Source: Candidatus Aminicenantia bacterium
Lineage (GTDB): Bacteria; Acidobacteriota; Aminicenantia; UBA2199
NCBI GenBank assembly: GCA_965225955.1
Contig: CBDDBX010000009.1
Location: forward strand, 68,880 to 132,879
DNA: 64,000 nucleotides
Direction of reading: 5' to 3'
Below, piece after piece: positions 22,571 to 63,415 of the stretch; the first letter of the stretch is position 1, and every line of letters starts with the position of its first letter. Below the pieces are notes generated by a model that did not search any database, was not told where the DNA came from, and worked only from the letters and a program-made list of their open reading frames with translations. The position numbers and the translations under genes are program-made.

Positions 22571-22589
22571 ATCTATTTCTCCTGATTGA

Positions 22590-22970: not shown

Positions 22971-22999
22971 TTCCTCCTTAATGAAAAAATCGTATTAAT

Positions 23000-23986: not shown

Positions 23987-24054
23987 TTTTTTCTCCTTAA
24001 TAGTTTCCGCTTGTCAGGGATTCCGGTCCTTTTTTAACTATCTGTTTGAAGATT

Positions 24055-25323: not shown

Positions 25324-25338
25324 TAATGCCTCCTGACT

Positions 25339-25722
25339 TTATTTATTACATTTATTGCATAAGCCTTTGAATATCATTCTCATACCTGTAACTGTAAATT
25401 CCCCTGTATCCAATTTTAACATAATATCTTTTTTATCTTTTGCATTCAATCGGATATCTTCAATAGAGTGGCATTTTACACAGACAGCATGTGAGTGAGG
25501 GGTAGGGTCCCAGTCGTATCTGGCGGGTCCATTCATGAAAGTCAGTTTGGATATATCTCCACTTTCACATAGTTGTTCAAGGTTACGATAAACTGTTGCA
25601 ATACTTATTTTTGGAAAAAGATCTCTCATCTGCATGTATAGTTCATCGGCAGTAGGATGTAATCTGCTGCTTCTTATTAACTTAAGTATTTCGTTTCTTT
25701 GTTTTGAGTTTCTTCTTTTCAT
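25339..25722 (-). CDS. Fur-family metalloregulator (PerR-like by context)
   Basis: 127 aa. HTH 'ISIATVYRNLEQL'. C-terminal CxxC...CxxC (CVKC...CNKC). Sits 15 bp upstream of cydA. Confidence 0.75.
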   Translation of the reverse strand: MKRRNSKQRNEILKLIRSSRLHPTADELYMQMRDLFPKISIATVYRNLEQLCESGDISKLTFMNGPARYDWDPTPHSHAVCVKCHSIEDIRLNAKDKKDIMLKLDTGEFTVTGMRMIFKGLCNKCNK

Positions 25723-25932
25723 TTTTCAATAATAGTAATTATTATCAATTTAAATATAAATAGATTAGAAACGTTTGTCAATAGTAAAAAATTTATATAA
25801 ATACTTTTTCATATTTTTTCTGCTACATGCTGAATAAAACGTTTTTATGTATATTCTAAATAGAGTGAGAGTGGGATCTGTAAGGGTGTTATGTGAAGTG
25901 GAAAATTTTTTCTTAAAAAAAAATTTTTTTTC

Positions 25933-25961
25933 TTGACAACACAAATTAGTTGGATTATCAT
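25933..25961 (+). promoter_or_regulatory. Sigma70-type promoter TTGACA-N17-TATCAT for ahpC
   Basis: Consensus -35 with 17-bp spacing. Preceded by a long A/T tract (UP-like). Confidence 0.45.
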
Positions 25962-25964
25962 GCT

Positions 25965-25983
25965 AATGATAACGATTATCATT
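25965..25983. promoter_or_regulatory. Fur/PerR-type box AATGATAAcgaTTATCATT
   Basis: Palindrome closely matching the GATAATGATAATCATTATC class. Overlaps the ahpC promoter/TSS and is divergent from the fur-cydAB-dfx operon. Confidence 0.55.
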
Positions 25984-26004
25984 AACAAAAAAATGGAGGA
26001 AAAG

Positions 26005-26565
26005 ATGTTAAAGATTAATGAAAAAGTAGAAAGTTGTACAGTTAAAGCGTTTCATGATGGTGAATTAAAAGAGATTAATTTAAAAGAGTATGACGGTAAA
26101 TGGAAAATCTTCTTCTTCTATCCTGCAGATTTTACTTTTGTATGCCCAACAGAACTGGGTGAAATGGCAGATTATTATGAAGAGTTTAAGAAAGAGGGAG
26201 CGGAAGTTTTCAGTGTAAGTACTGATACTGAATTTGTTCATCTGGCATGGCATAATGATTCTCCTACAATTAAAAAGATAAAATACCCAATGCTTGCAGA
26301 TCCCGCAGGTAAACTTAGCCGTTACTTTGGTGTGCATATCGAAGATGCCGGTGTAGCACTCAGAGGAACATTTGTAGTTGATCCTGATGGTGTTCTGAAA
26401 ATAGCAGAAATTCATGACCTGGGTATTGGAAGAAGTGCAAAAGAGCTTTTAAGAAAAGTAAGAGCTGCTAAGTTTGTACGTGAAAACGGAGAAGTTTGTC
26501 CTGCAAGCTGGGAACCTGGTGCAGATACACTGAAGCCTGGTGCTGATCTCGTAGGTAAAATATAG
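26005..26565 (+). CDS. ahpC: Typical 2-Cys peroxiredoxin (AhpC/Tsa family)
   Basis: GGAGG RBS before MLKINEK. Peroxidatic 'FTFVCPTE' and resolving 'EVCPA' motifs. Confidence 0.85.
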   Translation: MLKINEKVESCTVKAFHDGELKEINLKEYDGKWKIFFFYPADFTFVCPTELGEMADYYEEFKKEGAEVFSVSTDTEFVHLAWHNDSPTIKKIKYPMLADPAGKLSRYFGVHIEDAGVALRGTFVVDPDGVLKIAEIHDLGIGRSAKELLRKVRAAKFVRENGEVCPASWEPGADTLKPGADLVGKI

Positions 26566-26579
26566 GATAACCTTAATTT

Positions 26580-26603
26580 GCCGGCAGATTTCTTCTGCCG
26601 GCA
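26580..26603 (+). terminator. Hairpin after ahpC (weak terminator or attenuator)
   Basis: gccggcag-atttctt-ctgccggc. There is no T-tract on the + strand. Confidence 0.3.
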
Positions 26604-26676
26604 TGTGTAGTAAAAAAACGTGTCCTGAAGTATAATTATAGACTTAAATAGTTCAAACGAAATAGGAGAAGATGAT

Positions 26677-27183
26677 ATGATATCAAAAAAGATCGAGCAG
26701 TTACTGAATGATCAGATGAATTTCGAGATTTTTTCAGCTTATGTATACAGAGCAATGGGAGCATATTGTGATGTAAGAGATCTCTCCGGTTTTTCCAACT
26801 GGTTCAAAGTGCAGGCTCAGGAAGAAGAGATGCATGCAGAAAAGATTTATAATTTTGTTCTGGACCGTGGTGGAGAACCTGTATATAAAGGTTTTGGTGA
26901 CCCCGGACATGACTGGGAATCGGTTATTAAAGTATTTGAAGAAGCTCTCGGGCATGAGCAGGTTGTTACCGAAAGGTTTAACAATCTTATGACTGAAGCA
27001 GTTAAAGAAAATGATCACGCAACAAGATCTTTTCTGAACTGGTTTATTGACGAGCAGGTTGAAGAAGAAGCTACTGCTCAGTCAGTGGTAAATCAGCTGA
27101 AAATTTTAGGCGATAGTGGACACGGTATTCTGATGATGGACAGAGAAATGGCTGCCAGAAAGTTCGTGCCTGCTGCTGAGTAA
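26677..27183 (+). CDS. Bacterial non-heme ferritin
   Basis: 168 aa. Ferroxidase-centre residues 'EEEMHAEK' and 'EQVEEE'. Confidence 0.75.
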   Translation: MISKKIEQLLNDQMNFEIFSAYVYRAMGAYCDVRDLSGFSNWFKVQAQEEEMHAEKIYNFVLDRGGEPVYKGFGDPGHDWESVIKVFEEALGHEQVVTERFNNLMTEAVKENDHATRSFLNWFIDEQVEEEATAQSVVNQLKILGDSGHGILMMDREMAARKFVPAAE

Positions 27184-27209
27184 ATATATAAAAAAATCTG
27201 GAGTTGTAA

Positions 27210-28409
27210 ATGGGTAAACTAGACGCTGTAAAGATATCCGAGTCAGTATACTGGGTCGGAGCAATAGACTGGAATGTAAGAAATTTTCATGGATACAGAA
27301 CAGGAAGAGGAACTACATATAATGCTTTTCTGATTCTGGCTGATAAAATAACACTGATTGACACTGTAAAAAGCGGCTTTTTCAGTGAAATGAAGGCAAG
27401 AATTGCTTCACTTATCGATCCTGAAAAAATAGATTATATAGTATCAAACCATGCTGAACCTGATCATTCAGGATCAATGGTTGAGGCAATAGAGTGTTTT
27501 AAGCCTGAAAAGGTTTATGCTTCAAAAATGGGAGTGAAAGCTCTTAATCAGCACTACAATTTCCCAATTGATCTTGTAGCAGTTGCTGATAATGAAGTAC
27601 TGGACCTTGGTAATATGAATCTGACTTGTATTGAAACAAGAATGCTTCACTGGCCGGATAGTATGTTTACCTATCTTAATGAAGAGAAAGTACTCTTTAC
27701 TCAGGATGCATTTGGTATGCATCTGGCTTCAAGTGAGAGATTCGGGGATGAACTGCCATGGACTACACTTGAAAGATGGGCGAAGAGTTACTATGCAAAT
27801 ATTATAACTCTCTATTCACCTCATGTGAGACGATTACTGGAAAAGGTTGAACAATCCGGACTGGATTTCAGTATTGTTGCGCCTGACCATGGGCCTGTAT
27901 GGAGAAATACCGGCAACTTCACCAAACTTCTCGGACTATATAAAAAATGGTCTGACAGGGTTATGGATAAAAAAGTTGTTGTACTTTATGACACAATGTG
28001 GAAGGCTACAGAGACTATGTCACGATACTTTGAAGATGGTCTGAGAAAGGGTGGTGTTCAGGTTGTGTCAATGTCAATGACTCACAGTGACAGAAGTGAA
28101 GTTGCAGACGAACTGCTTGAAGCTGCAGGTGTGGTTGTAGGTTCTCCTACACTCAATAACAACCTTCTGCCTTCAATAGCGGATATTCTTGTCTATATGA
28201 AAGGACTCAAGTTCGGAACTCCGTACTCAGCTGTTTTTGGTTCCTATGGATGGAGTGGTGAATCAATTAAACAGGTTAAAGAGAAGCTTGAGGAGATGGG
28301 GACTGAAGTTGTAGGCGAAGTAAAGTGCCAGTATACTCCTGATGAGGAGACCCTCAGAAAGTGCTACGATATAGGCCTTGAACTGGCTGAGAAAATTAAT
28401 AAAAACTAA
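27210..28409 (+). CDS. Flavodiiron protein (rubredoxin:oxygen/NO oxidoreductase, FprA/ROO type)
   Basis: Metallo-beta-lactamase-like diiron motif 'HAEPDHSG' plus a C-terminal flavodoxin domain. 399 aa. Confidence 0.8.
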
Positions 28410-29314: not shown

Positions 29315-29866
29315 ATGAACTTGTTGAAAAAAATTTTCAGGAACAGGTATGTTACTTACGGGTTTATCTTTGGTGCGGTATTTGCTTTTGGAGTTGCTTA
29401 TGCAATAAGCTCTGCAGTAAAGCATACCGGTGATGATAAGTTCTGCGGAACCTGCCATATAATGGATTTTGCTATTAATGCATATCATCAGGACGTGCAT
29501 GGGGGAAACAATAAAAACGGATTCAAGGCAGAGTGTACTGACTGTCATCTTCCTCATGACACAATAGTCAATTTTATTCTTACAAAAGGGTATAAAGGGC
29601 TTCATGATCCTATCTCCCAGTTGATAAATGATGAAGAAAAACTGGATTGGGTAGGGATTCTGAAGGACCGGGAGAAGTTTACCTACTCTTCAGGTTGCCT
29701 GAAGTGCCACGATCTTGATGCAATAAAAATGGAAATTCCCAAAGCCTGGCAGGCTCACAGGGATTTTAAGCAGGGTAAGGTTAAAAGCTGTATTGAGTGC
29801 CATAAACATGTCGGTCATAAAGATATTCTGGTTCATATAAAAAAACGTTTTGGAGGTGACAGGTGA
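29315..29866 (+). CDS. NapC/NirT/NrfH-family membrane-anchored tetraheme cytochrome c (quinol dehydrogenase)
   Basis: N-terminal TM helix and 4 CxxCH motifs (CGTCH, CTDCH, CLKCH, CIECH). 183 aa. Confidence 0.8.
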   Translation: MNLLKKIFRNRYVTYGFIFGAVFAFGVAYAISSAVKHTGDDKFCGTCHIMDFAINAYHQDVHGGNNKNGFKAECTDCHLPHDTIVNFILTKGYKGLHDPISQLINDEEKLDWVGILKDREKFTYSSGCLKCHDLDAIKMEIPKAWQAHRDFKQGKVKSCIECHKHVGHKDILVHIKKRFGGDR

Positions 29867-31167
29867 GAAGACTGAAATTAATATTTATCACCGCTGCGGT
29901 GATATTCAGTTTCACAGCACTATGGGCTTCTGTTAAAGGAGTTAAAGAGCTGAAGGTTAACCGGGGGTTAACAAAAGAGGCGGCAAAATGTATAGAGTGC
30001 CACTCAACTAAACAGCCGGGAATAGTTGCTGACTGGAAACAGAGCAGACATGGTCATGTAGGAGTTTCCTGCATAGATTGTCATAAGGTGGAGAAGGGTT
30101 CAAAGATGGCATCCCAGTTTTGTGAGGGGGTCAAAGGAACAGATACTTATCTCTCCTCTCTTGTTACTCCTGAAACCTGTGCCAAGTGCCACGCTCTTGA
30201 AGTTAAGCAGTTTAAAGCCAGTGGCCATTACAGAGCCAGGAAACAGTATGTAAATAAGAAAAATCTTAACGATCTTATTGCAGTTCACGAAGGGCAGAAT
30301 ATGCCGGAATTTGCAACTGCAGCAGAAGAGACTGGTTGCATGCAGTGTCATGGTTCTATTATTAAACTTGACAAGAATAATCGCCCGATAAAATCCACCT
30401 GGCCTACAGCAGGTATTGGTACAATGTATCCAAATGGTGATATTGGTAATTGTACCGTATGTCATACAAGACATACTTTCAGTATAGAAGAAGCAAGAAA
30501 ACCTGATGCGTGCTCTTCATGCCATCTGGGACCTGATCATCCAAATATTGAGATATTTGAAAACAGTAAGCATGGTCATATTTATAAGACCCAGGGGCAT
30601 AAATGGAACTACAGTAGTGCACCGGATGCCTGGGAACCTGGAGATTACAGAGCTCCAACCTGTGCTGTTTGCCACATGAGTGGAATTGGTGATCTTAAAA
30701 CCACTCACAATATTTCTGAAAGATTAAAATGGAATCTCTGGGCTAAAGAATCAAAGATACGTAATTCCAAAGACCCAATGAGTCCTCTTACAGGCAATGG
30801 AATTGAAGGTAGAAAAAAGATGGAACGTGTGTGTAGTAATTGTCATTCAACTCAACACACTAAAGGATTCTTCTCAGCAGCAGATAAGCATATCCGTCTC
30901 TATAATGAGGGGTACTGGAAACCTGCCAAAAAGATGCATGATGAGCTTAAGGCAAAGAACCTCCTTAAGAAAAACCCATGGGAAGATGAGTTCCAGAAAA
31001 TCTTCTATCATCTGTGGCATCACCAGGGAAGAAGAATGCGTCAGGGAGCTGCAATGGGAGCGCCTGATTACGCTCACTGGCATGGAGTCTTTGAATGTCA
31101 GCAGGATATTGCTGAGTTGAGACTGATTCATGCAAAACGTTTAAAAACAGGTAAAATAGAGCATTAA
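29863..31167 (+). CDS. Periplasmic octaheme c-type cytochrome, HAO/Otr-like (reductive type; candidate nitrite/hydroxylamine/NO reductase)
   Basis: Signal peptide. 8 CxxCH motifs (CIECH, CIDCH, CAKCH, CMQCH, CTVCH, CSSCH, CAVCH, CSNCH). Overlapping start, consistent with translational coupling to the NrfH-like gene. Confidence 0.6.
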   Translation: MRRLKLIFITAAVIFSFTALWASVKGVKELKVNRGLTKEAAKCIECHSTKQPGIVADWKQSRHGHVGVSCIDCHKVEKGSKMASQFCEGVKGTDTYLSSLVTPETCAKCHALEVKQFKASGHYRARKQYVNKKNLNDLIAVHEGQNMPEFATAAEETGCMQCHGSIIKLDKNNRPIKSTWPTAGIGTMYPNGDIGNCTVCHTRHTFSIEEARKPDACSSCHLGPDHPNIEIFENSKHGHIYKTQGHKWNYSSAPDAWEPGDYRAPTCAVCHMSGIGDLKTTHNISERLKWNLWAKESKIRNSKDPMSPLTGNGIEGRKKMERVCSNCHSTQHTKGFFSAADKHIRLYNEGYWKPAKKMHDELKAKNLLKKNPWEDEFQKIFYHLWHHQGRRMRQGAAMGAPDYAHWHGVFECQQDIAELRLIHAKRLKTGKIEH

Positions 31168-33878: not shown

Positions 33879-34214
33879 ATGGTACAAGTACTTACACTTT
33901 CTGAATCGATAATACTACTGACTATTCATAAGTTACAGCAAGAGGCTTATGGAGTAAAAATCAGACGATCAATAGAAGAAAATACAGGAATAGAATACTC
34001 TTACGGAGCTCTCTACAGCTCTCTGGAGCAGCTTACCAGGAAAGGGTATGCTGATAAAAAGGACGGAGATCCTACACCTGAGCGCGGAGGTCGCAGGAAA
34101 TCCTTTTATACAGTTACTTCTGATGGCATAAAAGCTCTTGAAGCAGCCAGAGAGCTCAACAAAACAATCTGGAAAGATTTCTCATCTGTCAGAGCTGAAG
34201 GAGAGGAAGCATGA
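33879..34214 (+). CDS. PadR-family transcriptional regulator (module 2)
   Basis: 111 aa with a 'YGVKIRRSIEENTG...GALYSSLEQLTRKGY' motif. Confidence 0.8.
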   Translation: MVQVLTLSESIILLTIHKLQQEAYGVKIRRSIEENTGIEYSYGALYSSLEQLTRKGYADKKDGDPTPERGGRRKSFYTVTSDGIKALEAARELNKTIWKDFSSVRAEGEEA

Positions 34215-36769
34215 AGAACTTTTTTATTAAATTCCTTTCAAAAGAGAGCTTTGATGATCTTGCGGGAGATATTGCTGAAGAGTATAACCTTGTAAAAAAG
34301 GAGAGAGGAGCTGTACAGGGAATAGTGTGGCTTATGAAACAGCTTTTTACTACTTTAATTTCTCTTCTGAAATCAGAGGCAGGATGGCGATCAGGGCTTT
34401 TCAGGAGTTTTCTGAAATCAGCTTTCAGAACTCTTCTGAGACAGAAAGCATACTCTTTTGTAAATATAACAGGCCTTGCACTTGGTATATGTGCTGTTAT
34501 TCTGATTATGGTCTATATTGGCTATGAATACAGTTATGAAAATATTCATGAAAAGAGAGAGTCAATCTACAGAATATGTATAAAAACATATAAAGGTGAG
34601 AGGCATATGGGGGATTCAACTTACTATCCTCCTCCCCTTGGAGAAGAGATGACACGGGTTGCTCCTGAAGTGAAGGATTTTGCAACTATGAGTGGAGAGA
34701 AGAAGAGGCATGTGGTTGTTGGTAAGAGGGGATTCATGGTTGATGGGATCAGATATACAACTTCGGGTATTCTAAGAGTTTTCTCTTTTGGTCTCAAAAA
34801 TGGAGTTTATCCGGTTGATTTTGATAAACCCTTTAAGGTGATTCTAACCAGAAGCCTTGAAAAAAGATTGTTTGGAGATGAAACTTCTATTGGTAAATTA
34901 ATAGGTATAAATGGAACGGGTAACTATCAGGTTGTATCTGTAATAGATGACCCTCCCGGGAATTCTCACCTTAAATTTGAGATGCTGGTCTCCTTTTCAT
35001 CACTGGCAAAAGATAGAAACATCTATATACATAAGAATCCCGCCTCTTATCTTGGCTGGAATGGGGGACACCAGTATGTGTCTTACCTGCAGCTGCGAAA
35101 AGGTAGTTCTGCAGAAGCTGTTCAGAAGAGAGCACAGAGTATTGCAGATGATAAGGTAAACAGATCAAGTGGCCCCTGGTATATTAAACCTGTGCTGCAG
35201 AAACTTGGGGATATTCACCTTCATCATACATCGCCGGTGATTATGAGAAATATTAAGATATTCTCTCTGATTGCTGTTTTCATACTCCTGATAGCCTGTA
35301 TAAATTTTGTTAATATGAGTACTGTCGGTGCTGTTAAAAGAGCAAAAGAGATTGGTGTGAGAAAAGTAATGGGAGCAGAGCGGCAGGGACTTATTAAACA
35401 GTTTCTTACAGAATCTTCAGTTCTGAGTAGTGCTGGATTTGCCGGAGGATTTATACTGGCATCTCTTGTAGGAGGGAGATTTTTCAGTCTCCTGGGAAGA
35501 GAACTGGATTTCTGGGGAGCAGTGCAGGTGCAGTATTTTGTACCAGGCATTCTGCTGGCTCTTACTGTAGGAGTTCTGGCAGGGTTATATCCTGCGTTTT
35601 ATCTGTCTTCATGCAGTATAGATGGTAACTTTAAGAAAGGAGCCAGAAAGGGGAAGTTCTTCAGAAACGGGCTTGTGATACTTCAGTTTGCCATATCTAT
35701 CGTTTTGATTGCAGCCACAATACTTGTAAACGGACAGATAAAGTTTATGAAAAACAGAGATCTGGGGTTTCAGAAGGAAAATATGCTCTATCTTCCTTTG
35801 TCCAGCAGAAACGCAGCTGTGAAATCCCATATAATAAAGAAGAAGATAATGGAAATTCCTGGCATAAAAGCCGTTGGTGGAGTTTCACAGCTACCTGGTA
35901 AAGGTTTTACAATGAATGGCTACCGGCCTCAGGGAAAAGATGAGTTTATGATGATAAATGTTGTGGATGTAGACTCAGATTTCTTCAGACTTTTTGGGAT
36001 AACTGTTAAAGATGGAAGAGGATTTCTGCCTGATAATAGTGGGGACATGAACAGGTATGTTGTTAATGAAAAGTTTGCCGATGTAATGGGATGGAGCAGA
36101 GCCACGGGAAAGAGAGTGGAGAGAAACGGTATCCATGAAATTATCGGAGTTGTTAAGGATTTCAGTTTTGATAAAGGATATAAGGATATTGCTCCGCTTA
36201 TTATTACAGCCAGACCATGGGATGGTAAATTTAACTATCTTGTTTTTCGGACATCCGGGAATATAGATGGTGCTGAGTTACTTAACAGAGTTGAAGCGGT
36301 GTGGAGAGATACAGCTCCGCTTACTCCTTTTGAGCCTGGGTTTCTGGAAGATGATATCGATAATCTTTATAGAAGTGAGGAGCGCTTTGAAGGCCTCTTT
36401 TTCTGGTTTTCCTGTATTGCATTGGGGATAGCTTTACTGGGAGTAATAAGTCTGGCTTCCTATTCTGTAGAACAGAGGCTCAGGGAAATTGGTGTCAGGA
36501 AGGTTCTTGGAGCTTCCGGTATGTCAATATTCGGAATGTTTTCCCTGGAGTTTGTGATACTTATTACTGTAGGTAATGTTCTGGCCCTTCCAATTGTATG
36601 GTATTGGGGGAACCTGTGGCTTGAAAATTTTGTGCACAGAATATCAGTTACTCCGGATATTTTTCTTCTCTCCCTTTTTATAAGTGTATTTATGGGAGTT
36701 CTGGTAGTATCTTTTCAGATAATAAGAGGTGTAAATTCCAACCCTGTAGAAGTGTTGAAATGTGATTAA
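34211..36769 (+). CDS. Orphan duplicated-FtsX permease (ADOP/MacB-like) with an N-terminal prefix domain (module 2)
   Basis: 852 aa with two FtsX blocks. Start overlaps the PadR stop (ATGA). Confidence 0.75.
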   Translation: MKNFFIKFLSKESFDDLAGDIAEEYNLVKKERGAVQGIVWLMKQLFTTLISLLKSEAGWRSGLFRSFLKSAFRTLLRQKAYSFVNITGLALGICAVILIMVYIGYEYSYENIHEKRESIYRICIKTYKGERHMGDSTYYPPPLGEEMTRVAPEVKDFATMSGEKKRHVVVGKRGFMVDGIRYTTSGILRVFSFGLKNGVYPVDFDKPFKVILTRSLEKRLFGDETSIGKLIGINGTGNYQVVSVIDDPPGNSHLKFEMLVSFSSLAKDRNIYIHKNPASYLGWNGGHQYVSYLQLRKGSSAEAVQKRAQSIADDKVNRSSGPWYIKPVLQKLGDIHLHHTSPVIMRNIKIFSLIAVFILLIACINFVNMSTVGAVKRAKEIGVRKVMGAERQGLIKQFLTESSVLSSAGFAGGFILASLVGGRFFSLLGRELDFWGAVQVQYFVPGILLALTVGVLAGLYPAFYLSSCSIDGNFKKGARKGKFFRNGLVILQFAISIVLIAATILVNGQIKFMKNRDLGFQKENMLYLPLSSRNAAVKSHIIKKKIMEIPGIKAVGGVSQLPGKGFTMNGYRPQGKDEFMMINVVDVDSDFFRLFGITVKDGRGFLPDNSGDMNRYVVNEKFADVMGWSRATGKRVERNGIHEIIGVVKDFSFDKGYKDIAPLIITARPWDGKFNYLVFRTSGNIDGAELLNRVEAVWRDTAPLTPFEPGFLEDDIDNLYRSEERFEGLFFWFSCIALGIALLGVISLASYSVEQRLREIGVRKVLGASGMSIFGMFSLEFVILITVGNVLALPIVWYWGNLWLENFVHRISVTPDIFLLSLFISVFMGVLVVSFQIIRGVNSNPVEVLKCD

Positions 36770-44577: not shown

Positions 44578-44913
44578 GTGAAAATACTCACAATAAATGA
44601 AGAGATTCTTCTTATGGGAATCTGGAAACTAGGGGAAAATGCTTACGGTGTAAAAATTATGGAGTTCTATTCAGATGCTACGGGCCGGGAAGTAAGTTTT
44701 GGCACCCTTTATAATAATCTTGATCAGCTTGTTAAGAAAGAGTATGTTGTTTCGGTTAAAGGTGAACCAACTGCTGTAAGAGGTGGAAAGAGGAAAGTCT
44801 ATTATACAATCACTGAAATAGGCCGGGAGGCTCTGGGAAGAGCCAGAGAGCTTCATCGGAAAATCTGGGAAGGTGTAGCAGAAACAAACTTCATAGCTGG
44901 AGATTCTGAATGA
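44578..44913 (+). CDS. PadR-family transcriptional regulator (module 3)
   Basis: GTG start with an AGGAGG RBS. 'YGVKIMEF...GTLYNNLDQLVKKEY' motif. Confidence 0.8.
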   Translation: MKILTINEEILLMGIWKLGENAYGVKIMEFYSDATGREVSFGTLYNNLDQLVKKEYVVSVKGEPTAVRGGKRKVYYTITEIGREALGRARELHRKIWEGVAETNFIAGDSE

Positions 44914-47483
44914 ATCAGAAAAATTCACCTCCTTCATCAGCTAAATGGCTTGTATCAAGATTAAGTGAGTATGAGAACAGATACTCTCTCGAAGGGGATA
45001 TGGCTGAAGTGTGGGAAAGTAAGTGTAAAAATCGTGGAAGACTCAGAGCCAATCACTGGTATATAAAAGAGACTGTTAAAAGCAGTTTTTCATATATGAA
45101 ATTTATATCCGGCAGGAACTGCTCTCTTATATTGAATAGTTTTAAACCTGTACTGAGAAATATTGTAAAATTCAAAGGTTACTCACTTATTAATATTCTT
45201 GGACTGGCGATAGCTGTTACTGTTGCTCTGATGATAGCTTTCTTCATCAGAGGTGAAATGCAGATGGACAGTTTTCAGAAAAAAGGTGACAGGATTTACA
45301 GACTTGAAGCCGGTAACTGGGCCATTCTGGGAGCTCCTCACGGAAAGATTGTTAAAGAGAAATTTGCCGAAGTTGAAGAGTATGTTACTTTTAATAACAT
45401 CTCATATACAGGAATGTATGTTAAGAAAAAGGACAATACCAATGTCTCTCTGAAACGAACTATGATGGCTACAGAGGCTTTTTTCAGAATTTTTAATGTG
45501 GATTTCATCCATGCCGTCCCAGAAGGTGCTCTGAAAGCTCCTTTTACGATAGTTCTTAATAGAAGTGAAGCAATGAAGATCTTTGGTACAGTTGATGTGG
45601 TGGGCCGGAACCTGGTTGTAAATAAGGTATATACATTTAAAGTCGTTGGTGTTATGGAGGATATGAAGAATGTTCACTTCAGAGTGGGGTCAGTCATGTC
45701 GTTTATAACTCTTAGCAAAATTATTGATGATAAAAGGTTTATGACCCGTCTCGGTTCCTGGAATCACGGTACTTTTCTCCTGTTAAAACCGGGAGTTAAT
45801 TTACGAAACCTGGAAAAGAAGATTACCGCTCATTTTAGTGATCTCTATTTCAGCAGACATAATGAAAAAAGTGATGCTGTATTCTCTCTGAGAAATTACA
45901 GAAACATCTATTTCTGCAAAGATAAGTTTCATGAGTACAGTATGAAGCGGGGTAGTAGTGGTTTTCTGATGATTCTTGGAGGGATAGCAGTTTTTATAAT
46001 TTTAATTGCATGTATGAACTATATAAATATATCGACTGCAATAGCTGGTTTACGGGCAAAAGAGATCGGTTTGAGGAAAACAGTAGGCGGAAGTCGGGGA
46101 AATCTTATAATGCAGTTTATGATGGAAACAGCTGTAATATGTTCAACAGGATTTGTTATTGCATCAGGATTGTTATGGTCTATTATGCCGGGGTTCAGTA
46201 AATTTCTTAACAGTGAGATGAGTTTTACTCTCTTTGATCCATGGGTTATTGGAATAATGGGAGGTGTCTGGTTAACAGTTACAATTATGGCAGGACTTTA
46301 TCCTGCACTATATCTGACATCCTTTAAACCTGCAGAAGTACTGAAAGGAAGAAGTAGTAACAGACAGAAGGGAAGTTTAAGAAAAATACTTGTAGTTTTT
46401 CAGTTCGCAGTATCAGTTGGACTCTCTATTGCAACACTGATCATTTTTGATCAGATTAACTATATGAGAAATGCGGAAACCGGTTTTACTAAAGATCAGG
46501 TGATAAATTTTGCTTTGAGGGGTGATTTGAGAAAAAAGAAAGATATGGTTAAAGAGGAGCTGTTAAAGATGCCTGATATAAAAGGTGTTGCATACTCAAA
46601 TACAATTCCCGGCAGAATAAGATGGACTGAAACATTTAAAGCAGAGGGCAGATTCTGTAGTGCAAGTTTTAATCCTGTTGATGAGGACTACCTTAAAGTT
46701 ATGGATTTAAAGCTCCTTGAAGGACGCAACCTTATAAAGAGTGACTGTAGCTCAGAATCAGAAGGCTTTCTCTGTAATGAAACAGCTGTTAAAGCTCTTG
46801 ATCTTAAAAAACCCTGGGCTGGTAAGAGAGTTGATAACGGCTATGCAAAAAATGCAAGAATAGTGGGAGTTGTTAAAGATTTTCATATAGACTCTCTCCA
46901 TACAAAAATCAAGCCACTGTTTATGTCTATAAGAAATCATGGGTTGTCCTGCGCAAACGTAAGGGTTAGCGGAAAGAATGTTCCAGAAGTACTGAGTCAT
47001 ATTGAGAAACTATGGAAAAGATATGCCCCTGATTATCCATTCAGGTATGTTTTTCTAAATGAGTCCTTTGATAGTCAATACAGAAAAGAGGAAAAAATGG
47101 GTAATATGGTCGGTTATTTTGCTCTTATAGCTCTCTTTATTGCCGGAGCAGGGCTCACAGGTTTATCTTCATTTACAGCAAGACAGAAGAGAAAAGAGGT
47201 TAGTTTAAGGAAAGTTCTGGGAGCTTCAGTGCCGAAAGTTGTTCTGCTACTATCTGCTGATTTCATGAAATGGGTACTTCTGGCTAATATCATTGCATGG
47301 CCTCTTGCATGGAGCGGTATGAATACCTGGCTCAGCAATTTTGCATACAGAACAGACATTGACATTACTCTTTTTATCCTCTCAGGTTCAGTTGCATTTA
47401 TAACAGCTTTTATAACTATATGTTTTCATTCAGTTAAAGCTGCTACAGAGAATCCTGCAGAGGTTTTGAGGTGTGATATCTGA
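44910..47483 (+). CDS. Orphan duplicated-FtsX permease (ADOP/MacB-like) with an N-terminal prefix domain (module 3)
   Basis: 857 aa with two FtsX blocks. Start overlaps the PadR stop. Confidence 0.75.
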   Translation: MNQKNSPPSSAKWLVSRLSEYENRYSLEGDMAEVWESKCKNRGRLRANHWYIKETVKSSFSYMKFISGRNCSLILNSFKPVLRNIVKFKGYSLINILGLAIAVTVALMIAFFIRGEMQMDSFQKKGDRIYRLEAGNWAILGAPHGKIVKEKFAEVEEYVTFNNISYTGMYVKKKDNTNVSLKRTMMATEAFFRIFNVDFIHAVPEGALKAPFTIVLNRSEAMKIFGTVDVVGRNLVVNKVYTFKVVGVMEDMKNVHFRVGSVMSFITLSKIIDDKRFMTRLGSWNHGTFLLLKPGVNLRNLEKKITAHFSDLYFSRHNEKSDAVFSLRNYRNIYFCKDKFHEYSMKRGSSGFLMILGGIAVFIILIACMNYINISTAIAGLRAKEIGLRKTVGGSRGNLIMQFMMETAVICSTGFVIASGLLWSIMPGFSKFLNSEMSFTLFDPWVIGIMGGVWLTVTIMAGLYPALYLTSFKPAEVLKGRSSNRQKGSLRKILVVFQFAVSVGLSIATLIIFDQINYMRNAETGFTKDQVINFALRGDLRKKKDMVKEELLKMPDIKGVAYSNTIPGRIRWTETFKAEGRFCSASFNPVDEDYLKVMDLKLLEGRNLIKSDCSSESEGFLCNETAVKALDLKKPWAGKRVDNGYAKNARIVGVVKDFHIDSLHTKIKPLFMSIRNHGLSCANVRVSGKNVPEVLSHIEKLWKRYAPDYPFRYVFLNESFDSQYRKEEKMGNMVGYFALIALFIAGAGLTGLSSFTARQKRKEVSLRKVLGASVPKVVLLLSADFMKWVLLANIIAWPLAWSGMNTWLSNFAYRTDIDITLFILSGSVAFITAFITICFHSVKAATENPAEVLRCDI

Positions 47484-47496
47484 CTATTTATAAAAA

Positions 47497-47530
47497 GGGA
47501 GGCAGATTTCTGCCTCCGTTTACTTTTGTG
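47497..47530 (+). terminator. Intrinsic terminator after permease 3
   Basis: gggaggcag-attt-ctgcctcc hairpin followed by GTTTACTTTTGTG. Confidence 0.6.
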
Positions 47531-47796
47531 TACATTTTGTACGGTTTTTTTGATGCAGGGGGCTTTTATTAAAAATAAAGAAATTTATCCCTTGACTTTG
47601 AATTTGCAATTAATTAAATTGTGTAAGTTGATACAAATTTAGAGATATTATGGAATCATCGGTATCTCATTATGGTTTATGAATTATCAGAATAAGATTG
47701 ATTGTACAGGCAATCTCAAAGTTGAAGACTAACCTGACTACTCGTTTGTATCGATAGATTTTAAAGGATTGTTGTAAAATAATCTGCCAAAGGGAT

Positions 47797-49062
47797 TTGT
47801 TTGTGACTGTTTGCAGTTCGGAATATTACTGGGTGTTTTTAAAACCTTATGTTAAGGTGTTTCGCAATAATGATAGGGCACTACTGTATAATACCAGCAA
47901 CGGGGATCGACTGATTGTTGAAAGACCAGATCAGCTGAATGGTATAGATGAATTGAACAGAGACAGAAGCAGGCCTGTTTTAAAAGAATCCGGCGAACTT
48001 AATGTTTCAGATACAGACTCTTTAATAGAAGAACTAAAAAGCAGAGGTATGCTTGAAGTTCTTCAGGTTGCAGAAAACAGAAGCCCGTTGATAATAGGTG
48101 CTCCCATTGAGAAGGGAAGAGTAGGGCACGATGGTGAATTGATAGCTTCCGGGCTTCTGAATCATCTTAAAAAACTGAATATAAACATATATTCAGAAGC
48201 AGGTGTGTTTCCACAATCATTCAGGGAAGCGGGGAAACAGTTCCCTTTTTTTGAACATACTGAACATGGAGTTGCAGAAATAGAAACCTCTTTGCTGGAA
48301 AAGATATTCTGTGAGTTAAAGGGAAGAGGGGTATCTGAACTGTCTGTTTTCACTACTTCCCTTGGTAGACACAGGGATTTTGATATTATTACAGAGATGG
48401 CAGGAGATTATAGTGAGGATATTGTGTTCAATATACCTGCAACTGACCTTAGTCGTCAGCTGGAGAGCATAGGAAAGATTAATATTTACAGTAATATTTC
48501 TGTAAAAATACACTTTGCCTCTTCTATTCCTGAAACAGAACTTGATGCAGCACTTAAAGGTTTGAGATTGTCCTGGATACCTTTTGAGTTCAATTTTATT
48601 GTAAAAGGGGAGGAGGATCTTGACTACTATTCAGATCTTATTGAAGAGTTCAGCCCTGAATCTTACTGGATGCAGCCTTTTTTTGATGGAGGTAATCTGG
48701 GATTCTTCAAAGATAATGTGGTTGTTAAAAGTGCTGGATTTGAGAGAATAAGAAGCAGTGAAGATATATTTACTAATTCAATATTTAATACTGAAAATTA
48801 CGGAAGTCTGACAGTGTCCACCGATGGCAGAGTGTATGGTAGTATGAATAAATCCTCTATCGGAGAGCTTACCCACTCCTCTCTTTTTGAAATAATCTAT
48901 AAAGAGTTGAGAGAAGGGAACTCCTGGGGAGATGTGCGAACTAAACTGGAGTTTTGTAAAGACTGTGTGTATAACAGAATCTGCCCCCCGATTAAAGGTT
49001 ATGAGCATGTAATAGGTACAGAACATGTATGTATGCTCAATGATAACCCCGAGAGTAGCTGA
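47797..49062 (+). CDS. Radical-SAM-like protein lacking the CxxxCxxC cluster but retaining a C-terminal SPASM/twitch-like Cys motif ('pseudo-rSAM'-like)
   Basis: N-terminal 'YWVFLKPYVKVFRNNDRALLYNTSNGDRL', typical of SPASM-family peptide maturases. No CxxxCxxC anywhere in the protein. C-terminal 'CKDCVYNRICPP...C'. Start uncertain (TTG at 47797 or GTG at 47803). Confidence 0.4.
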   Translation: MFVTVCSSEYYWVFLKPYVKVFRNNDRALLYNTSNGDRLIVERPDQLNGIDELNRDRSRPVLKESGELNVSDTDSLIEELKSRGMLEVLQVAENRSPLIIGAPIEKGRVGHDGELIASGLLNHLKKLNINIYSEAGVFPQSFREAGKQFPFFEHTEHGVAEIETSLLEKIFCELKGRGVSELSVFTTSLGRHRDFDIITEMAGDYSEDIVFNIPATDLSRQLESIGKINIYSNISVKIHFASSIPETELDAALKGLRLSWIPFEFNFIVKGEEDLDYYSDLIEEFSPESYWMQPFFDGGNLGFFKDNVVVKSAGFERIRSSEDIFTNSIFNTENYGSLTVSTDGRVYGSMNKSSIGELTHSSLFEIIYKELREGNSWGDVRTKLEFCKDCVYNRICPPIKGYEHVIGTEHVCMLNDNPESS

Positions 49063-49079
49063 AAAAGGAAGGTGCTATA

Positions 49080-49535
49080 ATGGAATCTATATATCATCAG
49101 GTCATAATTGATGCGGACGAAAAGGTGGTTTTGAAAGCAATTACTTCAACAGAAGGAGTCGCAGGCTGGTGGATTGCTGAATGTAAAATCGGAGAAAAAA
49201 CTGGCGAGGAAAATGTATTCTATTACAATAATGAACCTTCACTGAAGATGAGAATAAACAGGCTTGAAGAAACCGGAGTGGAATGGGAGTGTGTAAAAGG
49301 GCCGGAAGAGTGGATGGGAACAAAAATAGTGTTCAGTTTCACTGTATATAATAGCTATATAAAGCTCGATTTCAGGCATACAGGGTGGAAAGAGCAGTCT
49401 GAATTTTTTGGAACCTGCAGTTATCACTGGGCAAGACACATGAGAATGTTAAGAGCTCTCTGTGAAACTGGTGAGAATCAGGTGAAACCTGAAGTAGAGA
49501 AAAATGAGATCCAGAGGGTAGCTGGAATCCGATAA
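49080..49535 (+). CDS. SRPBCC-superfamily protein (AHSA1/polyketide-cyclase-like fold)
   Basis: 151 aa with a 'VVLKAITSTEGVAGWW' N-terminus, typical of Aha1-like SRPBCC proteins. Confidence 0.6.
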   Translation: MESIYHQVIIDADEKVVLKAITSTEGVAGWWIAECKIGEKTGEENVFYYNNEPSLKMRINRLEETGVEWECVKGPEEWMGTKIVFSFTVYNSYIKLDFRHTGWKEQSEFFGTCSYHWARHMRMLRALCETGENQVKPEVEKNEIQRVAGIR

Positions 49536-50040
49536 AATTTTAATCCATTTTTTTTATCCAATATTCCACCTTTTTGGAGTATATGGTTTATTGCAGTTTT
49601 ACTGCATTTAAATTTCTGTTGTATTCGGACTTTCTTTAAGAACTGAGAGTACAGCTTTGAGCTGTAACCGGGCTTGAACGCAGGGGTTTGTTCCCGGATT
49701 ATACAGAACTTTACAGGAATAATTGGGCAGGAGCGCAATGAAGGCCAGGGAGACAGCAGGTACTGTTCAGCCTGCTTTTCCGGTCTTTCACTTTTCCAGA
49801 GATGATAAATTGTACTCTTTAGTTTAATCGGTAAAAATACTAAAGGAGATAGTAACAGGCGGATCTGGTAATGAAAGAAAACTCTCTATCTTTATGGGGA
49901 GAAGAACTATAAAAGAGGAAATGCTTTCTGTAGTAATTACTATCGATACAGTTTCACTAAAGAGAACAGATTTTTCCGGTGCCTACCTGAGAGCTGGAAC
50001 TGGTTTAAGATTCTGATTTAACTAATTATTCGATATAGGA

Positions 50041-50070
50041 GAGCACCGGATTTCCGGTGCTCTTATTGTT
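50041..50070 (+). terminator. Hairpin, possible terminator
   Basis: gagcaccgg-attt-ccggtgctc followed by TTATTGTT. Confidence 0.4.
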
Positions 50071-50075
50071 AACTT

Positions 50076-50329
50076 CGTTACGTCATTCAGTGGGAAGTAT
50101 AAGGAGACAGCTGCGTTCCTCTGAATAAGAGAACACAGTGCGTTGCCCATCTTTGCGAAGCAATGCTTCCCGCTTCGCTTCAGCATTGGCAAAGACCCAT
50201 CTCACCTATATTTTCATTCCTTCGCTTCGCTACGTCATTCAGTGGGAAGTATAAGGAGACAGCTGCGTTCCTCGCTGCACCCATCTCACCTATATTTTCA
50301 TTCCTTCGCTTCGCTACGTCATTCAGTGG
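50076..50329. repeat. Cluster of tandem/degenerate direct repeats (period about 84 bp; 2 full-ish copies plus a 45-bp partial copy)
   Basis: 'cccatctcacctatattttcattccttcgcttcgctacgtcattcagtgg' occurs at 50196 and 50280. 'cg(c/t)tacgtcattcagtgggaagtataaggagacagctgcgttcct' occurs at 50076 and 50228. The last copy supplies the final codons of dcp. Confidence 0.8.
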
Positions 50330-52479
50330 TGAGACCACGTTTTTTCATGAGGCCTTCAATTTTTGGTTCTCTGCCACGGAAAGCTTTATACATTTCCATC
50401 TCATCCATCTTGCCACCCATTGAAAGGATGTTGTTTCTAAAGGATTCTGCAGTTTTTTTGTCAAAGAGTGATGTCTCTTTAAATGCTTCAAATGCATCAC
50501 AGTCAAGAACTTCTGCCCAGATATATGCATGGTAACCGCAGTCGTAACCACCAATAATGTGCTGGAAGTATGTGCTTCTGTATCTGGAGATAACTTCAGG
50601 AATAAGGCCGATTTTTTTGAAATAATCTGCTTCAAACTTAGCTGTATCAACCTCTTTCTCTTCTGTAATTGTGTGATAGTTCATGTCAAGAAGTGATGCT
50701 GCCAGATATTCAACTGTAGCAAAGCCCTGGTTGAAGTGGCTGCTTTTTTCAAGTTTTTTAATAAGTGAATCGGGAATTGGTTTACCGGTTTTGTAGTGTT
50801 TTGCATAAACCTTAAGAACTTCAGGTTCTGCACACCAGTGTTCCATGATCTGTGATGGAAGCTCTACAAAATCTCTTGATGTTCTTGAAACACCAGGATA
50901 GTTACACTTATTAAAGAGTCCGTGAAGAGCGTGACCAAATTCGTGGAAAAGGGTTGTTGCTTCATCAAAACTCAGAAGTGCAGGTTTATCTCCTGATGGA
51001 GGAGTAAAGTTACATACATTGTAGATAACCGGAGTTTTCAGTTTACCTTCAATATTTGAGTAGCCTCTCAGACCACCGCACCATGCGCCGCCTCTTTTAC
51101 TGTTTCTGTAGAAATAATCAGTGTATAGAATACCGAGGTGTGAACCATCAGCTTCCTGAACTTCAAATACTTTTGCATCTTTATGGAAAACAGGAATATC
51201 TTTTCTTTCGATAAATTTGAGACCGTACAACTTAGTTGCTACATAGAAAGCTCCTTCACGTACGTTATCTACATCGAAATATGGTCTGAGTTCTTTCTCA
51301 TCCAGGTTGTATCTGGCTTTACGCAGCTTTTCTGCATAATACCACCAGTCCCAGGATTCAAGTTTCTCCTTTTTTACCCTCTTTATCCATAAGCTCCTGC
51401 ATGGCAGCGCGCTCTTTTTTTGCCATATTCAGAGCAGGAGTCCATAGTTTGTTGAGAAGTTTATAAACATTTGCAGGCTCTTTGGACATATTTATTTCCA
51501 GTCTGAAGTCTGCGTGTGTTTTATATCCCATTATTCTGGCTTTCTTTAATCTTAACAGAGCAATTCTTGCAATAATTTTCTTATTGTCATACTTGTCATT
51601 ATTGTTACATCTGTTGATATAGCCTTTATATAATTTTTCTCTGAGTTCTCTTTTGGGAGAGTACTGAAGGAATGGAATCCAGCTTGGTTTATGAAGTGTA
51701 AAAAGCCATTTGCCTTCCTGACCATCTTTTTTTGCAGCAGCAGCAGCGGTTTTTACAAGTGTTGCAGGAAGACCTTCCAGATCTTCTTTCTTATCGATGA
51801 AAAGTTTGAAACCGTTGGTGTCGTGGAGGAGGTTCTTTCTGAATTTAAGAGCCAGTACAGCCATCTCTTCGTTGATTGCTTTGATCTTTGCCTTCTCTTC
51901 AGGTTTCAGTTTTGCTCCACTTCTCACAAAACCTCTCCAGGTGTCAGTAAGAAGAGTCATCTCTTCAGAAGTAAGTTTCAGGTTATCCTTTTTTGCATAG
52001 AGAGTGTCAATTCTTTTGAAAAGCTCTGCATTGAGATTAACGAAATTACGATATTTACTGAGCATTGGTGTGATTTTGTCAGAAAGTTTCTGAAGTCCGG
52101 GAGTTGTATCGGCTCCATTCAGATGAAAGAATACAGCAGATACTTTACCAAGAAGTTCTCCATTTTTCTGCATCGCTACAATTGTATTGGCAAAAGTTGG
52201 TTCTTCTTTATTGTTGATAATAGCAAGAATTCCATCTTTTGCTTCTTTCAGGCCCTTTTCAAATGCCGGCATATAGTGCTCTTCTTTTATGAGCTTGAAT
52301 GGGGGCACTTTAAAAGGAGTGTTGTACTCTTTAAAGAATGGGTTCTCAGCTGTTACCGGAGCTTTTTCTGATGCAGGTTTAACCTCCTTCTTATCAGACC
52401 CGCTATTACATCCGGTGAAAATCAGCATTGAGAAAAATAGTATCCAGGACAGATTTTTAACAAAAGCTATTTTTTTCAT
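50319..52479 (-). pseudogene. dcp: M3-family peptidyl-dipeptidase (Dcp/oligopeptidase A-like) lipoprotein, interrupted by a single -1 frameshift near 51353-51364
   Basis: N-terminal part 51358-52479 has lipobox 'FTGC'. C-terminal part 50319-51230 carries HEFGH. Re-reading the junction in the +1 frame gives the contiguous ...GKKGET/LESWDWWYYAEKL..., the conserved M3 sequence. This is either a sequencing error or a recent pseudogene. Confidence 0.7.
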
Positions 52480-52550
52480 TATCCAAATACGTGAATTTAC
52501 ATACTTTTGTTTATGCAATATCTGATGGAAAATGAAAAATTTTTATTAAT

Positions 52551-62213: not shown

Positions 62214-62308
62214 GAGAGCTTCTGTTTTAAAAGATAATTTTATGAAACGTTTTGTTTCAGAATCGCGTCCTTTATTTTTTAGCACGAAATATTGCAATGG
62301 AGGATGTG

Positions 62309-63415
62309 ATGAAGAAACTGATTCTTTTGGTTGTATGCCTTGTACTGGCAGTTTATCTTAACGGAGATGTAAAGAATATTGATAAACCTTTGAAAGGGGA
62401 ATGGAAACCTGAATTAACAAAGGTAGCTGATCTTGAATGTGGTAATGGGGAGTTTTTCAGTAGAATTGATTCAATAAAGACTTCAGAAGATGGAAGAGTT
62501 TTTATTGCAGATGATAAAAACAGCAAAATCTATATTTTTGATAAAAACGGAAAATATATTACTGCTTTTGGCAAAAAAGGCGAAGGACCGGGAGAGTTCA
62601 GGTATCTGGAATCCATCCATGTTTTAAAAGATATGGTTGTAGTAGTGGGAAGAGCTCATCTTATCTATTTTGATACAGATGGTAAATACATTAAAACAGA
62701 AAAGTATCCTTCTGATCTTGAACCAAGAGTTTTCATCGATAAAGACAGATTTGTATCTGCACCTTCAGTTCCCTCCAGCAGAACAAAAGATACCAGACTT
62801 AAACTGGAAATATATAATATTGCAGATGAGAAGCGCACCGTTCTTACTGAATACAGCGCATTTGATAAAGCTTCTGTATCAAAAACTAAAGGGGGGCAGC
62901 AGATGGTTGTTAATATGATCGTCGGAGGAGTTACCCCTTTAATGGTTGTTGCATATAATGACGGAATAATCTATTACGGTATGAACGATCAGTACAGAGT
63001 TAATATGGTTGACCTTAATGGTAAGAGTAAAGGTGCTTTTGTTCTGGAAGGAAGAGATAAAGACCCTTTTACTACTGATAAAAAGAAGGAGCTTTTCACA
63101 AAAGTTAAAGGAATACCTCAGTCAACAATCAAAGTGCTGGTAAACGGACTTCCTGATGAACTGACATATTTCGACTCAGTGGAATTTGGCAATAATGGAA
63201 TGAGATATCTCTTTTTATCAGATGCCAGTGATGGAGAAGAGAAGAGAGTGGATATCTTCTCTGCTGAAGGTAAATATTTGTATAAAGGCCTTCTTGTATT
63301 TGAAGAAGGACTTGATATGAAAGCCTTTCATATTGATGGTAAGAGAGTAATTGTGGCCGCGGAAAATGAAGATGGAGAAGTTGTTGCGTCAATATACAGT
63401 GCTTCTCTTAAATAA
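62309..63415 (+). CDS. Secreted NHL-repeat/6-bladed beta-propeller (TolB-like) protein, paralog of 7188-8210
   Basis: GGAGG RBS before MKKLILLVVCLVLAV. 'GKKGEGPGEFRY' NHL motif. Shares its architecture with the first copy. Confidence 0.55.
   Translation: MKKLILLVVCLVLAVYLNGDVKNIDKPLKGEWKPELTKVADLECGNGEFFSRIDSIKTSEDGRVFIADDKNSKIYIFDKNGKYITAFGKKGEGPGEFRYLESIHVLKDMVVVVGRAHLIYFDTDGKYIKTEKYPSDLEPRVFIDKDRFVSAPSVPSSRTKDTRLKLEIYNIADEKRTVLTEYSAFDKASVSKTKGGQQMVVNMIVGGVTPLMVVAYNDGIIYYGMNDQYRVNMVDLNGKSKGAFVLEGRDKDPFTTDKKKELFTKVKGIPQSTIKVLVNGLPDELTYFDSVEFGNNGMRYLFLSDASDGEEKRVDIFSAEGKYLYKGLLVFEEGLDMKAFHIDGKRVIVAAENEDGEVVASIYSASLK

Follow-up and report, generated by a model that had tools for sequence, protein, structure and literature searches.

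A divergent, partnerless relative of the TIGR04150 pseudo-radical-SAM proteins in a Candidatus Aminicenantia genome, with lost catalytic motifs and four retained C-terminal cysteines

What might a protein with the outline of a peptide-modifying radical S-adenosylmethionine (radical SAM, rSAM) enzyme still do when both its catalytic motifs and its usual partner genes are gone? The question is raised by a gene in a 64-kb stretch (hereafter the window) of a 170-kb contig (CBDDBX010000009.1, assembly GCA_965225955.1) of a Candidatus Aminicenantia bacterium. An earlier note, made from the sequence alone, had described there a 421-amino-acid "pseudo-rSAM" protein that lacks the CxxxCxxC motif, keeps a SPASM-like cysteine remnant and is paired with an SRPBCC protein. 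The open reading frame (ORF) is present as described (47797-49062, plus strand, TTG start at 47797), and so are the N-terminal string YWVFLKPYVKVF...ALLYNTSNGDRL and the C-terminal string CKDCVYNRICPP...C that had been picked out of its translation. A GTG codon at 47803 is the likelier start, because the arrangement AGGGA-7 nt-GTG is kept in the ortholog on contig L001 (Logan run ERR15087788) and because the database copy of the protein, P0001, has 419 amino acids. Residue numbers below refer to this 419-amino-acid form (47803-49062, plus strand).

The protein matches TIGR04150, the NCBIfam model of the pseudo-rSAM proteins, over its whole length (residues 12-415 against profile positions 1-407 of 407), and an end-to-end match with an E value of 5.7e-58 is therefore not a chance pattern. 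Its score of 196.8 bits lies under the curated cutoff of 250 bits, as does that of its sole close relative, the L001 protein P0002 (54% identity, 211.9 bits), and all other members tested score between 299.7 and 410 bits. The family guess of the earlier note thus holds for homology and fails for regular membership: because the score falls below the cutoff, the window protein is, on profile evidence, a divergent outlier of TIGR04150. A Pfam search with this protein alone gave no match. When 5.8 billion proteins were searched by a word index, the protein itself, P0002, one ordinary TIGR04150 protein at 25% identity and nothing else came back. HMMER, run exhaustively over 1.84 billion cluster representatives, gave 1,270 relatives, 980 of them at E up to 1e-10, in which P0002 at 509 bits was followed by a drop to 164 bits (27% identity). 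No third member of the clade was found in the genome scan, the metagenome scan or the HMMER search of the 1.84 billion proteins. The divergence is also visible at individual sites. Conservation of 80% or more across 130 other representatives picks out 42 positions; the representatives themselves agree with the consensus at 38 of these on average and at 30 or more in every case, the window protein at 28. A neighbour-joining tree places the window protein with P0002 on a long, deep branch. What the clade shares with the rest of the family, apart from the end-to-end homology and a degenerate rSAM core, is the N-terminal domain with its YW..EPYV...LLYNTLNG pattern, Q146, W375 and the four cysteines of the C-terminal CxxCx5C...C. 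It differs from the family as a clade of two below the cutoff, with 14 of the 42 consensus positions changed and the GG motif gone.

The changes at the catalytic sites are the clearest of these differences. The window protein has six cysteines in total and no CxxxCxxC, as had been claimed. At the homologous position, where relatives carry CGLNCPNC (P0121) or CELNCNYC (P0287; ECELNCNYC in the pairwise alignment), it reads AGVFPQSF, and P0002 reads EKTISPEF. A frameshift hiding the motif was ruled out, since CxxxCxxC occurs in no frame of the gene region and substitutions stand at the aligned sites in both orthologs; the loss is thus real. No alternative three-cysteine cluster shared with P0002 exists among the six cysteines. 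In the GGE/GGN SAM-binding motif, the two glycines of GG are 93% and 81% conserved family-wide, including paired members without CxxxCxxC; both members of the clade have TT in their place. Because all three cysteines of CxxxCxxC have been replaced, the protein is predicted to be unable to bind the radical-SAM [4Fe-4S] cluster, and its sequence marks it as catalytically dead for radical chemistry. The word "pseudo" does not, on the other hand, describe the family as a whole. Of the 149 closest representatives (P0121-P0269), 78, or about half, still have CxxxCxxC, at about residue 130-150 in single-domain members; sampled members with the motif reach 324-353 bits on TIGR04150, and natural TIGR04148-TIGR04150 fusions of 800-970 amino acids are found (P0147, P0192, P0206, P0224 and P0265). 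The misfit of the label across a family in which about half of the nearest representatives keep CxxxCxxC and fusions exist matters for annotation and for the mining of peptide clusters.

The thought that the protein might show no homology to the radical SAM/SPASM fold at all is answered by the Pfam matches of its family, by the family profile and by a model of P0287, all of which point to rSAM enzymes. In 60 diverse family members, Pfam identified Radical_SAM in 22 (best E 5e-9), Fer4_12 in 15 and SPASM (PF13186) in 15 (best E 1.4e-5), with any other Pfam family appearing as singleton matches. When the family profile was compared with the PDB, the best 12 matches were all rSAM enzymes, with SuiB first and with profile positions 115-294 in register with SuiB residues 113-294. 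The AlphaFold model of P0287, in which CxxxCxxC is kept (predicted local distance difference test, pLDDT, 75; predicted template-modelling score, pTM, 0.75), matched SuiB over its full length (E 2.9e-10), followed by SkfB (6e-8), MoaA, BlsE, viperin and PqqE. The window protein in turn aligns with P0287 over residues 95-413 (BLASTP, E 3e-27), and hhalign placed the family and the TIGR04148-type rSAM profile in register at their motifs (E 2.6e-4). On these alignments, the link of the core to the rSAM partial TIM barrel, in fold and in ancestry, holds transitively through the family members. The AlphaFold2 (AF2) model of the window protein itself (pLDDT 64.9, pTM 0.42) is good for residues 10-95 and 200-300. 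The closest comparison is with SuiB (streptide Lys-Trp cyclase, PDB 5v1q) and SkfB (PDB 6efn), both of them rSAM maturases of peptides that are made on the ribosome and modified afterwards (RiPPs), with auxiliary-cluster domains. SuiB, which carries an N-terminal RiPP recognition element (RRE), has the same domain order as the window protein, and its rSAM core is in register with the family profile. At about 12% identity, however, the window protein has no rSAM cluster ligands, no GGE motif and no ligands for the first auxiliary cluster (AuxI), and SuiB-type chemistry is therefore not possible for it.

The C-terminal CxxCx5C...C, with the last cysteine following after 15 residues, was correctly described. 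C385, C388, C394 and C410, together with Q146 and W375, are invariant in all alignments, and the four cysteines are 98-100% conserved among the 130 representatives. The expression "SPASM-like remnant" is hence apt for the retention of cysteines and too weak for what is retained, which is a complete, family-invariant set of four ligands with the spacing of a second auxiliary cluster (AuxII). The seven-cysteine SPASM motif CX9-15GX4C...CX2CX5CX3C...C is not present in full: only CX2CX5C and the distal cysteine occur, the +3 position is Ile397 and there is no cysteine upstream. Among SPASM-type models, the window protein had a single match, to TIGR04193 (E 0.017). The distal cysteine completes the ligand set of AuxII. 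In SPASM enzymes, CX2CX5C serves the second auxiliary cluster and the cysteine three residues further on serves the first, and variants that have AuxII only occur naturally, as in AhbD of non-methanogenic archaea (PMC10452713). AhbD-type proteins keep CX2CX5C and the distal cysteine without AuxI ligands, as the window protein does; they differ from it in being active rSAM enzymes with an intact CxxxCxxC. By analogy, the four cysteines of the window protein would hold one AuxII-type [4Fe-4S] cluster and nothing else.

The N-terminal part of the protein points in a second direction. Its roughly 90 residues gave local Foldseek matches to the TbiB1-leader complex (PDB 5v1v; probability 0.97, TM score 0.61) and to ThcOx (PDB 5lq4; probability 0.97), with E values of 0.04-0.17. 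The model thus suggests an RRE-like peptide-binding module. The local fold match recalls PqqD and TbiB1, stand-alone RRE chaperones of leader peptides, and a non-catalytic binding of peptides is proposed here as it is for them. The window protein is nevertheless about four times larger, owing to its dead barrel and cysteine-rich domain, and has no sequence similarity to PqqD.

How far the gene has left the setting of its family can be seen from the neighbouring genes. The usual cassette runs from a GG-leader, cysteine-rich peptide through a TIGR04148-type rSAM to the pseudo-rSAM, the last two genes often overlapping; this order was seen in all eleven genome loci, in the Prevotellaceae loci and in three loci of the ~420-amino-acid type. 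In Bacteroidales-type loci, DUF5128 lipoproteins usually come after the cassette. Among loci L002-L018, the decayed L007 left aside, the upstream sequence is readable in 15; a true rSAM lies immediately upstream in 14 of them, mostly accompanied by a GG-leader peptide, and L017 is the exception. Next to the window gene, unlike these, there is neither a TIGR04148 rSAM nor a TIGR04149-like GG-leader peptide nor a DUF5128 gene. The statement of the earlier note that no true rSAM, precursor peptide or C39 exporter is visible nearby was borne out for the whole 64-kb window by motif, hidden Markov model (HMM), tblastn and Pfam scans. No genuine ORF of the window contains CxxxCxxC; HMMs built from cassette leaders and rSAMs, together with tblastn, found no match in the window or in L001; and Pfam annotation of the other genes of the window revealed no RiPP enzyme, C39 peptidase, ATP-binding cassette (ABC) ATPase or C39/ABC exporter. 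The span scanned around the gene was 47.8 kb upstream and 14.9 kb downstream in the window, and 3.3 kb upstream and 6.6 kb downstream in L001. The upstream spacer also contains small ORFs, which were considered as precursor peptides and ruled out, since the 38-codon ORF is 58% identical to its L001 counterpart in amino acids versus 77% in nucleotides and the leader ORFs are not conserved.

Two other loci of the set deserve mention in their own right. In L017 (Logan DRR203970, a 3.6-kb contig), the gene for P0287 (1493-2839; CxxxCxxC kept, 323.9 bits) stands between genes for a TPR Ser/Thr protein kinase and a sigma-54-type regulator with no adjoining TIGR04148 rSAM, and non-cassette settings thus exist elsewhere in the TIGR04150 family. 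L007, from a metagenome-assembled genome of Tannerellaceae, holds a decaying cassette (5638-8558) with an intact GG-leader peptide, a fragmented rSAM (an 83-amino-acid piece) and a pseudo-rSAM cut to 210 amino acids. The window itself contains a gene for a DUF5128 six-bladed beta-propeller protein (62252-63415, plus strand, E 1.4e-17) 13 kb downstream, flanked by PAD_porph and VOC genes. We considered it as a displaced member of the cassette and judged it coincidental, in view of its weak similarity to the cassette copies, the distance of 13 kb and the VOC gene beside it.

The protein need not be truly orphan, however. It might act in trans for a TIGR04148-type rSAM and GG-leader set encoded elsewhere in the genome, of which the visible sequence is only a part, and might there bind the leader or relay electrons. 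The tie between TIGR04150 and TIGR04148 is tight: the two genes are neighbours in 14 of the 15 loci that could be read, and natural fusions exist. The four invariant cysteines and the N-terminal domain have been retained under purifying selection. A precedent exists in PapB, where electrons are relayed between molecules through a second auxiliary cluster (PMC10470005). Yet no partner lies inside the scanned spans of the window or of L001, and a separated rSAM/pseudo-rSAM pair was seen in one other locus only, the short contig L017. Moreover, the clade scores below the cutoff and has lost sites that paired members keep, with GG changed to TT and 14 of the 42 conserved sites altered, which fits release from a partner. 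We regard an action in trans as a possibility worth keeping, although a rather unlikely one.

The loss of motifs and partners raises the further question of whether the gene is still in use. Between the window gene and its L001 ortholog, the ratio of nonsynonymous to synonymous substitution rates (dN/dS) is 0.12-0.17, with synonymous divergence saturated (dS > 2), which argues for a maintained gene; for comparison, the adjacent permease has a dN/dS of 0.05-0.10 between the same two loci. The ORF is unbroken in both genomes (414-419 amino acids), and its C-terminal half is the best conserved part. These comparisons indicate that the gene is maintained by purifying selection and speak against a decaying relic. 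A relic of a lost RiPP cassette without present function would explain the missing catalytic motifs and partner genes and the highest divergence in the family, in a neighbourhood with local signs of decay and duplication (a frameshifted M3 peptidase gene and repeats), and the cassette in L007 demonstrates that such decay takes place. It is hard to reconcile with two intact ORFs across saturated synonymous divergence at this dN/dS, with the conservation of the ribosome-binding site, start context and promoter block, or with the retention of the invariant cysteines and most of the C-terminal consensus positions. We consider a functionless relic very improbable. The description of the protein as orphan or re-purposed, offered in the earlier note, is in contrast a fair one and is backed by the purifying selection.

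Taken together, the sequence comparisons show a partnerless offshoot of the TIGR04150 lineage, deep and fast-evolving, which is catalytically dead, is maintained by selection and has a predicted promoter of its own. As to its function, we favour, with a probability of roughly 55%, the reading that this stand-alone descendant of an RRE-rSAM-SPASM peptide maturase serves as a non-enzymatic accessory of the Fe-S, peptide-recognition type. The pseudo-rSAM would have been freed from its cassette of rSAM and GG-leader peptide and then re-purposed. From the four cysteines with their putative cluster and the RRE-like domain we infer that the released accessory could carry an Fe-S cluster and bind a peptide (or another ligand) without acting as an enzyme, and its new role may be tied to the PadR-regulated MacB-type permease, its only conserved neighbour. 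Several observations weigh against this reading. The protein's own structural model is mediocre, with residues 98-123 and the cysteine-rich tail poorly predicted (pLDDT below 50 in the C-terminal cysteine region), and a global fold search with that model returned nothing significant. Sequence profiles of the isolated N-terminal domain gave no match to RRE or PqqD, the hhalign comparison of the C-terminal domain with the SPASM region of the partner was not significant, and the four cysteines could bind zinc instead. No candidate ligand or peptide for the window protein was found. The scan covers 64 kb of the 170-kb contig, so that an rSAM and peptide partner may lie further away, and the argument from synteny is thin in a clade of two members.

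That argument is as follows. The conserved neighbours of the pseudo-rSAM gene in both loci are an upstream pair of genes, for a PadR-family regulator and an ADOP-type permease. The PadR fragment with which L001 begins shares 69% identity with the PadR protein at 44578-44913 versus 54% with the paralog in the window, and the L001 permease shares 69% amino-acid identity with the permease at 44910-47483 versus about 29% with the two paralogs in the window. In contrast to the cassette members of the family, the window gene stands behind this pair with a sigma-70-like promoter of its own, and the genes have Shine-Dalgarno-like sites; promoter and sites hint at a source outside Bacteroidia. The upstream gap, noted earlier as 310 bp of non-coding DNA, is indeed non-coding and measures 313 bp (47484-47796). 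Within it, the conserved block contains TTGACT (47592-47597) and TAAATT (47615-47620) at a distance of 17 nucleotides; an inverted repeat, ATAAA-N4-TTTAT, lies immediately upstream of them. Inside the block is also the 38-codon TTG ORF (47526-47642), and its 58% amino-acid versus 77% nucleotide identity with L001 means that the block is conserved as DNA and not as protein. By this reading of the sequence, the pseudo-rSAM gene is transcribed from its own conserved, predicted promoter. An operator for PadR shared by the PadR and pseudo-rSAM promoters was ruled out, as the common 8-mers are merely AT-rich, and an Rfam search of the 5' leader and the downstream spacer at E up to 1 gave no match. 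A further function can be proposed, which we think unlikely: the protein could be an Fe-S, RRE-based intracellular sensor of foreign cysteine-rich GG-type peptides, or a sequestering (immunity) protein against them, forming with the PadR-controlled MacB-type permease a peptide-resistance module in a non-producer.

Downstream of the gene, the picture differs between the two loci. The SRPBCC/AHSA1 gene is present 17 bp after the pseudo-rSAM gene, where it had been reported. Its product matches PDB 2m89, an "Aha1 domain protein", over residues 2-134 (E 1.7e-13), and Pfam PF08327 (AHSA1) at E 0.0027 and 18.3 bits, under the gathering score of 22.1. It might form a functional pair with the pseudo-rSAM-like protein, for instance as a pocket that delivers a small hydrophobic ligand to the Fe-S protein or senses one for it. 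The two genes lie on the same strand without a terminator between them, the 17-bp spacer bears a Shine-Dalgarno-like GGAAGG, and in this genome the genes are probably co-transcribed. In L001, the only ortholog locus, there is however no SRPBCC gene, and what lies 139 bp beyond the pseudo-rSAM gene is a response regulator carrying an HD-GYP domain; since the downstream genes differ, the pairing proposed in the earlier note is not a conserved feature. Neither a RiPP-related role of AHSA1-type SRPBCC proteins in the literature nor close named relatives of this SRPBCC protein were found. We therefore look on a functional pair as distinctly unlikely, and return to the accessory released from its cassette as the preferred reading. 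The coordinates of the features are collected in Table 1.

Table 1. Features of the pseudo-rSAM-like gene and its surroundings (positions within the window)
Feature	Position	Strand	Evidence or remark
PadR-family transcriptional regulator	44578..44913	+	Pfam PF03551, E 3.7e-12; orthologous to the fragment of a PadR gene with which L001 begins
ADOP/MacB-FtsX duplicated permease, no adjacent ATPase	44910..47483	+	TIGR03434, E 1.2e-78 (below cutoff); Pfam MacB_PCD and FtsX
Terminator-like hairpin (8-bp stem, 6 GC pairs, T-rich tail) closing the permease unit	47498..47517	+	Sequence scan
Conserved non-coding block with predicted promoter, 129 nt	47518..47646	+	77.5% nucleotide identity with L001, versus 62-70% in flanking coding DNA
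Orphan pseudo-rSAM-like protein, 419 amino acids (421 from TTG 47797)	47803..49062	+	TIGR04150, E 5.7e-58; one close relative, P0002, 54%; dN/dS 0.12-0.17
N-terminal domain, residues 8-93, beta-beta-beta-beta then helices, RRE-like (winged-helix leader-peptide recognition element)	47824..48081	+	AF2 pLDDT 80-92; Foldseek
Degenerate radical-SAM core, residues ~115-294, beta/alpha repeats	48145..48684	+	Family profile versus SuiB; hhalign E 2.6e-4; AF2 pLDDT 80-89 at 200-300
Site of lost CxxxCxxC, A133-G-V-F-P137-Q-S-F140	48199..48222	+	MAFFT alignment of 132 family representatives; BLASTP with P0287
TT (positions 184-185) replacing GG of the GGE/GGN SAM-binding motif	48352..48357	+	Family alignment
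C385-x2-C388-x5-C394...x15...C410, AuxII-type spacing	48955..49032	+	Family-invariant; putative ligand role by analogy with AhbD (PMC10452713)
SRPBCC/AHSA1-fold protein, 151 amino acids	49080..49535	+	PDB 2m89; Pfam AHSA1 below threshold; absent from L001
Interleaved direct repeats of 49-51 nt, spacings 84 and 152 nt	50073..50357	.	At the 3' end of the convergent M3 peptidase gene

The TIGR04150 pseudo-rSAM of the GG-Bacteroidales system is known from in-silico work only and is named in a genome-mining survey (PMC4573289); no experimental paper on TIGR04150 proteins was found in the literature searched. The family is thus already known as an in-silico annotation, and what is new here is the orphan, partnerless clade. 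TIGR04150 proteins are common in the peptide clusters of gut and termite-gut Bacteroidales, and the present clade reveals which parts selection keeps without a partner, namely the four-cysteine C-terminal site and the N-terminal domain. It is therefore a clean subject for the question of what these pseudo-enzymes do, whether their task is to carry an Fe-S cluster, to take up a peptide or to pass electrons on.

Some further observations concern the surroundings of the gene. The downstream gap, described earlier as some 500 bp of non-coding DNA plus a repeat cluster, exists, with the qualification that the spacer as a whole spans 783 bp (49536-50318), of which the last ~250 bp contain the repeats. 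Tandem Repeats Finder called no array at 50073-50357; the repeats are local duplications, and no link between them and the pseudo-rSAM gene was detected. No relics of protein families were found in the spacer, and an AraC-type relic on the minus strand at 49478-49738 was discarded for want of Pfam support. The 537 bp at 49536-50072 (plus strand) hold no recognisable gene, gave no Rfam or Pfam match and end in a good terminator-like hairpin, GAGCACCGGA-TT-TCCGGTGCTC followed by TTATTGTT, at about 50043-50072; this segment may hold a small RNA or a 40-codon ORF (49894-50016). The gene beyond the spacer, for a Dcp-like Peptidase_M3 (50319-51230 and 51358-52518, minus strand), is broken into two ORFs where one frameshift falls in an A-rich run (...KKGET and stop, then KKEKLESWDWWYY...), and is either a pseudogene or the product of a homopolymer sequencing error.

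The window as a whole contains three pairs of PadR and ADOP/MacB-FtsX genes (13607-16523, 33879-36769 and 44578-47483), none of which has an adjoining ABC ATPase gene. Behind the first pair, the region 16562-21608 encodes a GT2 glycosyltransferase, a TetR-like regulator (identified by reading), two paralogous O-methyltransferases, the second of them judged by its near-identical N-terminus, and a GT4 glycosyltransferase, and may represent a small gene cluster for tailoring or for modifying the cell surface. It is followed at 21649-28409 by genes whose translations read as rubrerythrin-like and desulfoferrodoxin-like proteins, the CydAB cytochrome bd, a Fur/PerR-type regulator, a ferritin and a flavodiiron protein, which, on this reading of the ORFs, would form an oxygen-defence cluster of the kind typical for anaerobes or microaerophiles. 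NapC/NirT and multihaem cytochrome genes, confirmed by Pfam, lie at 29315-31167.

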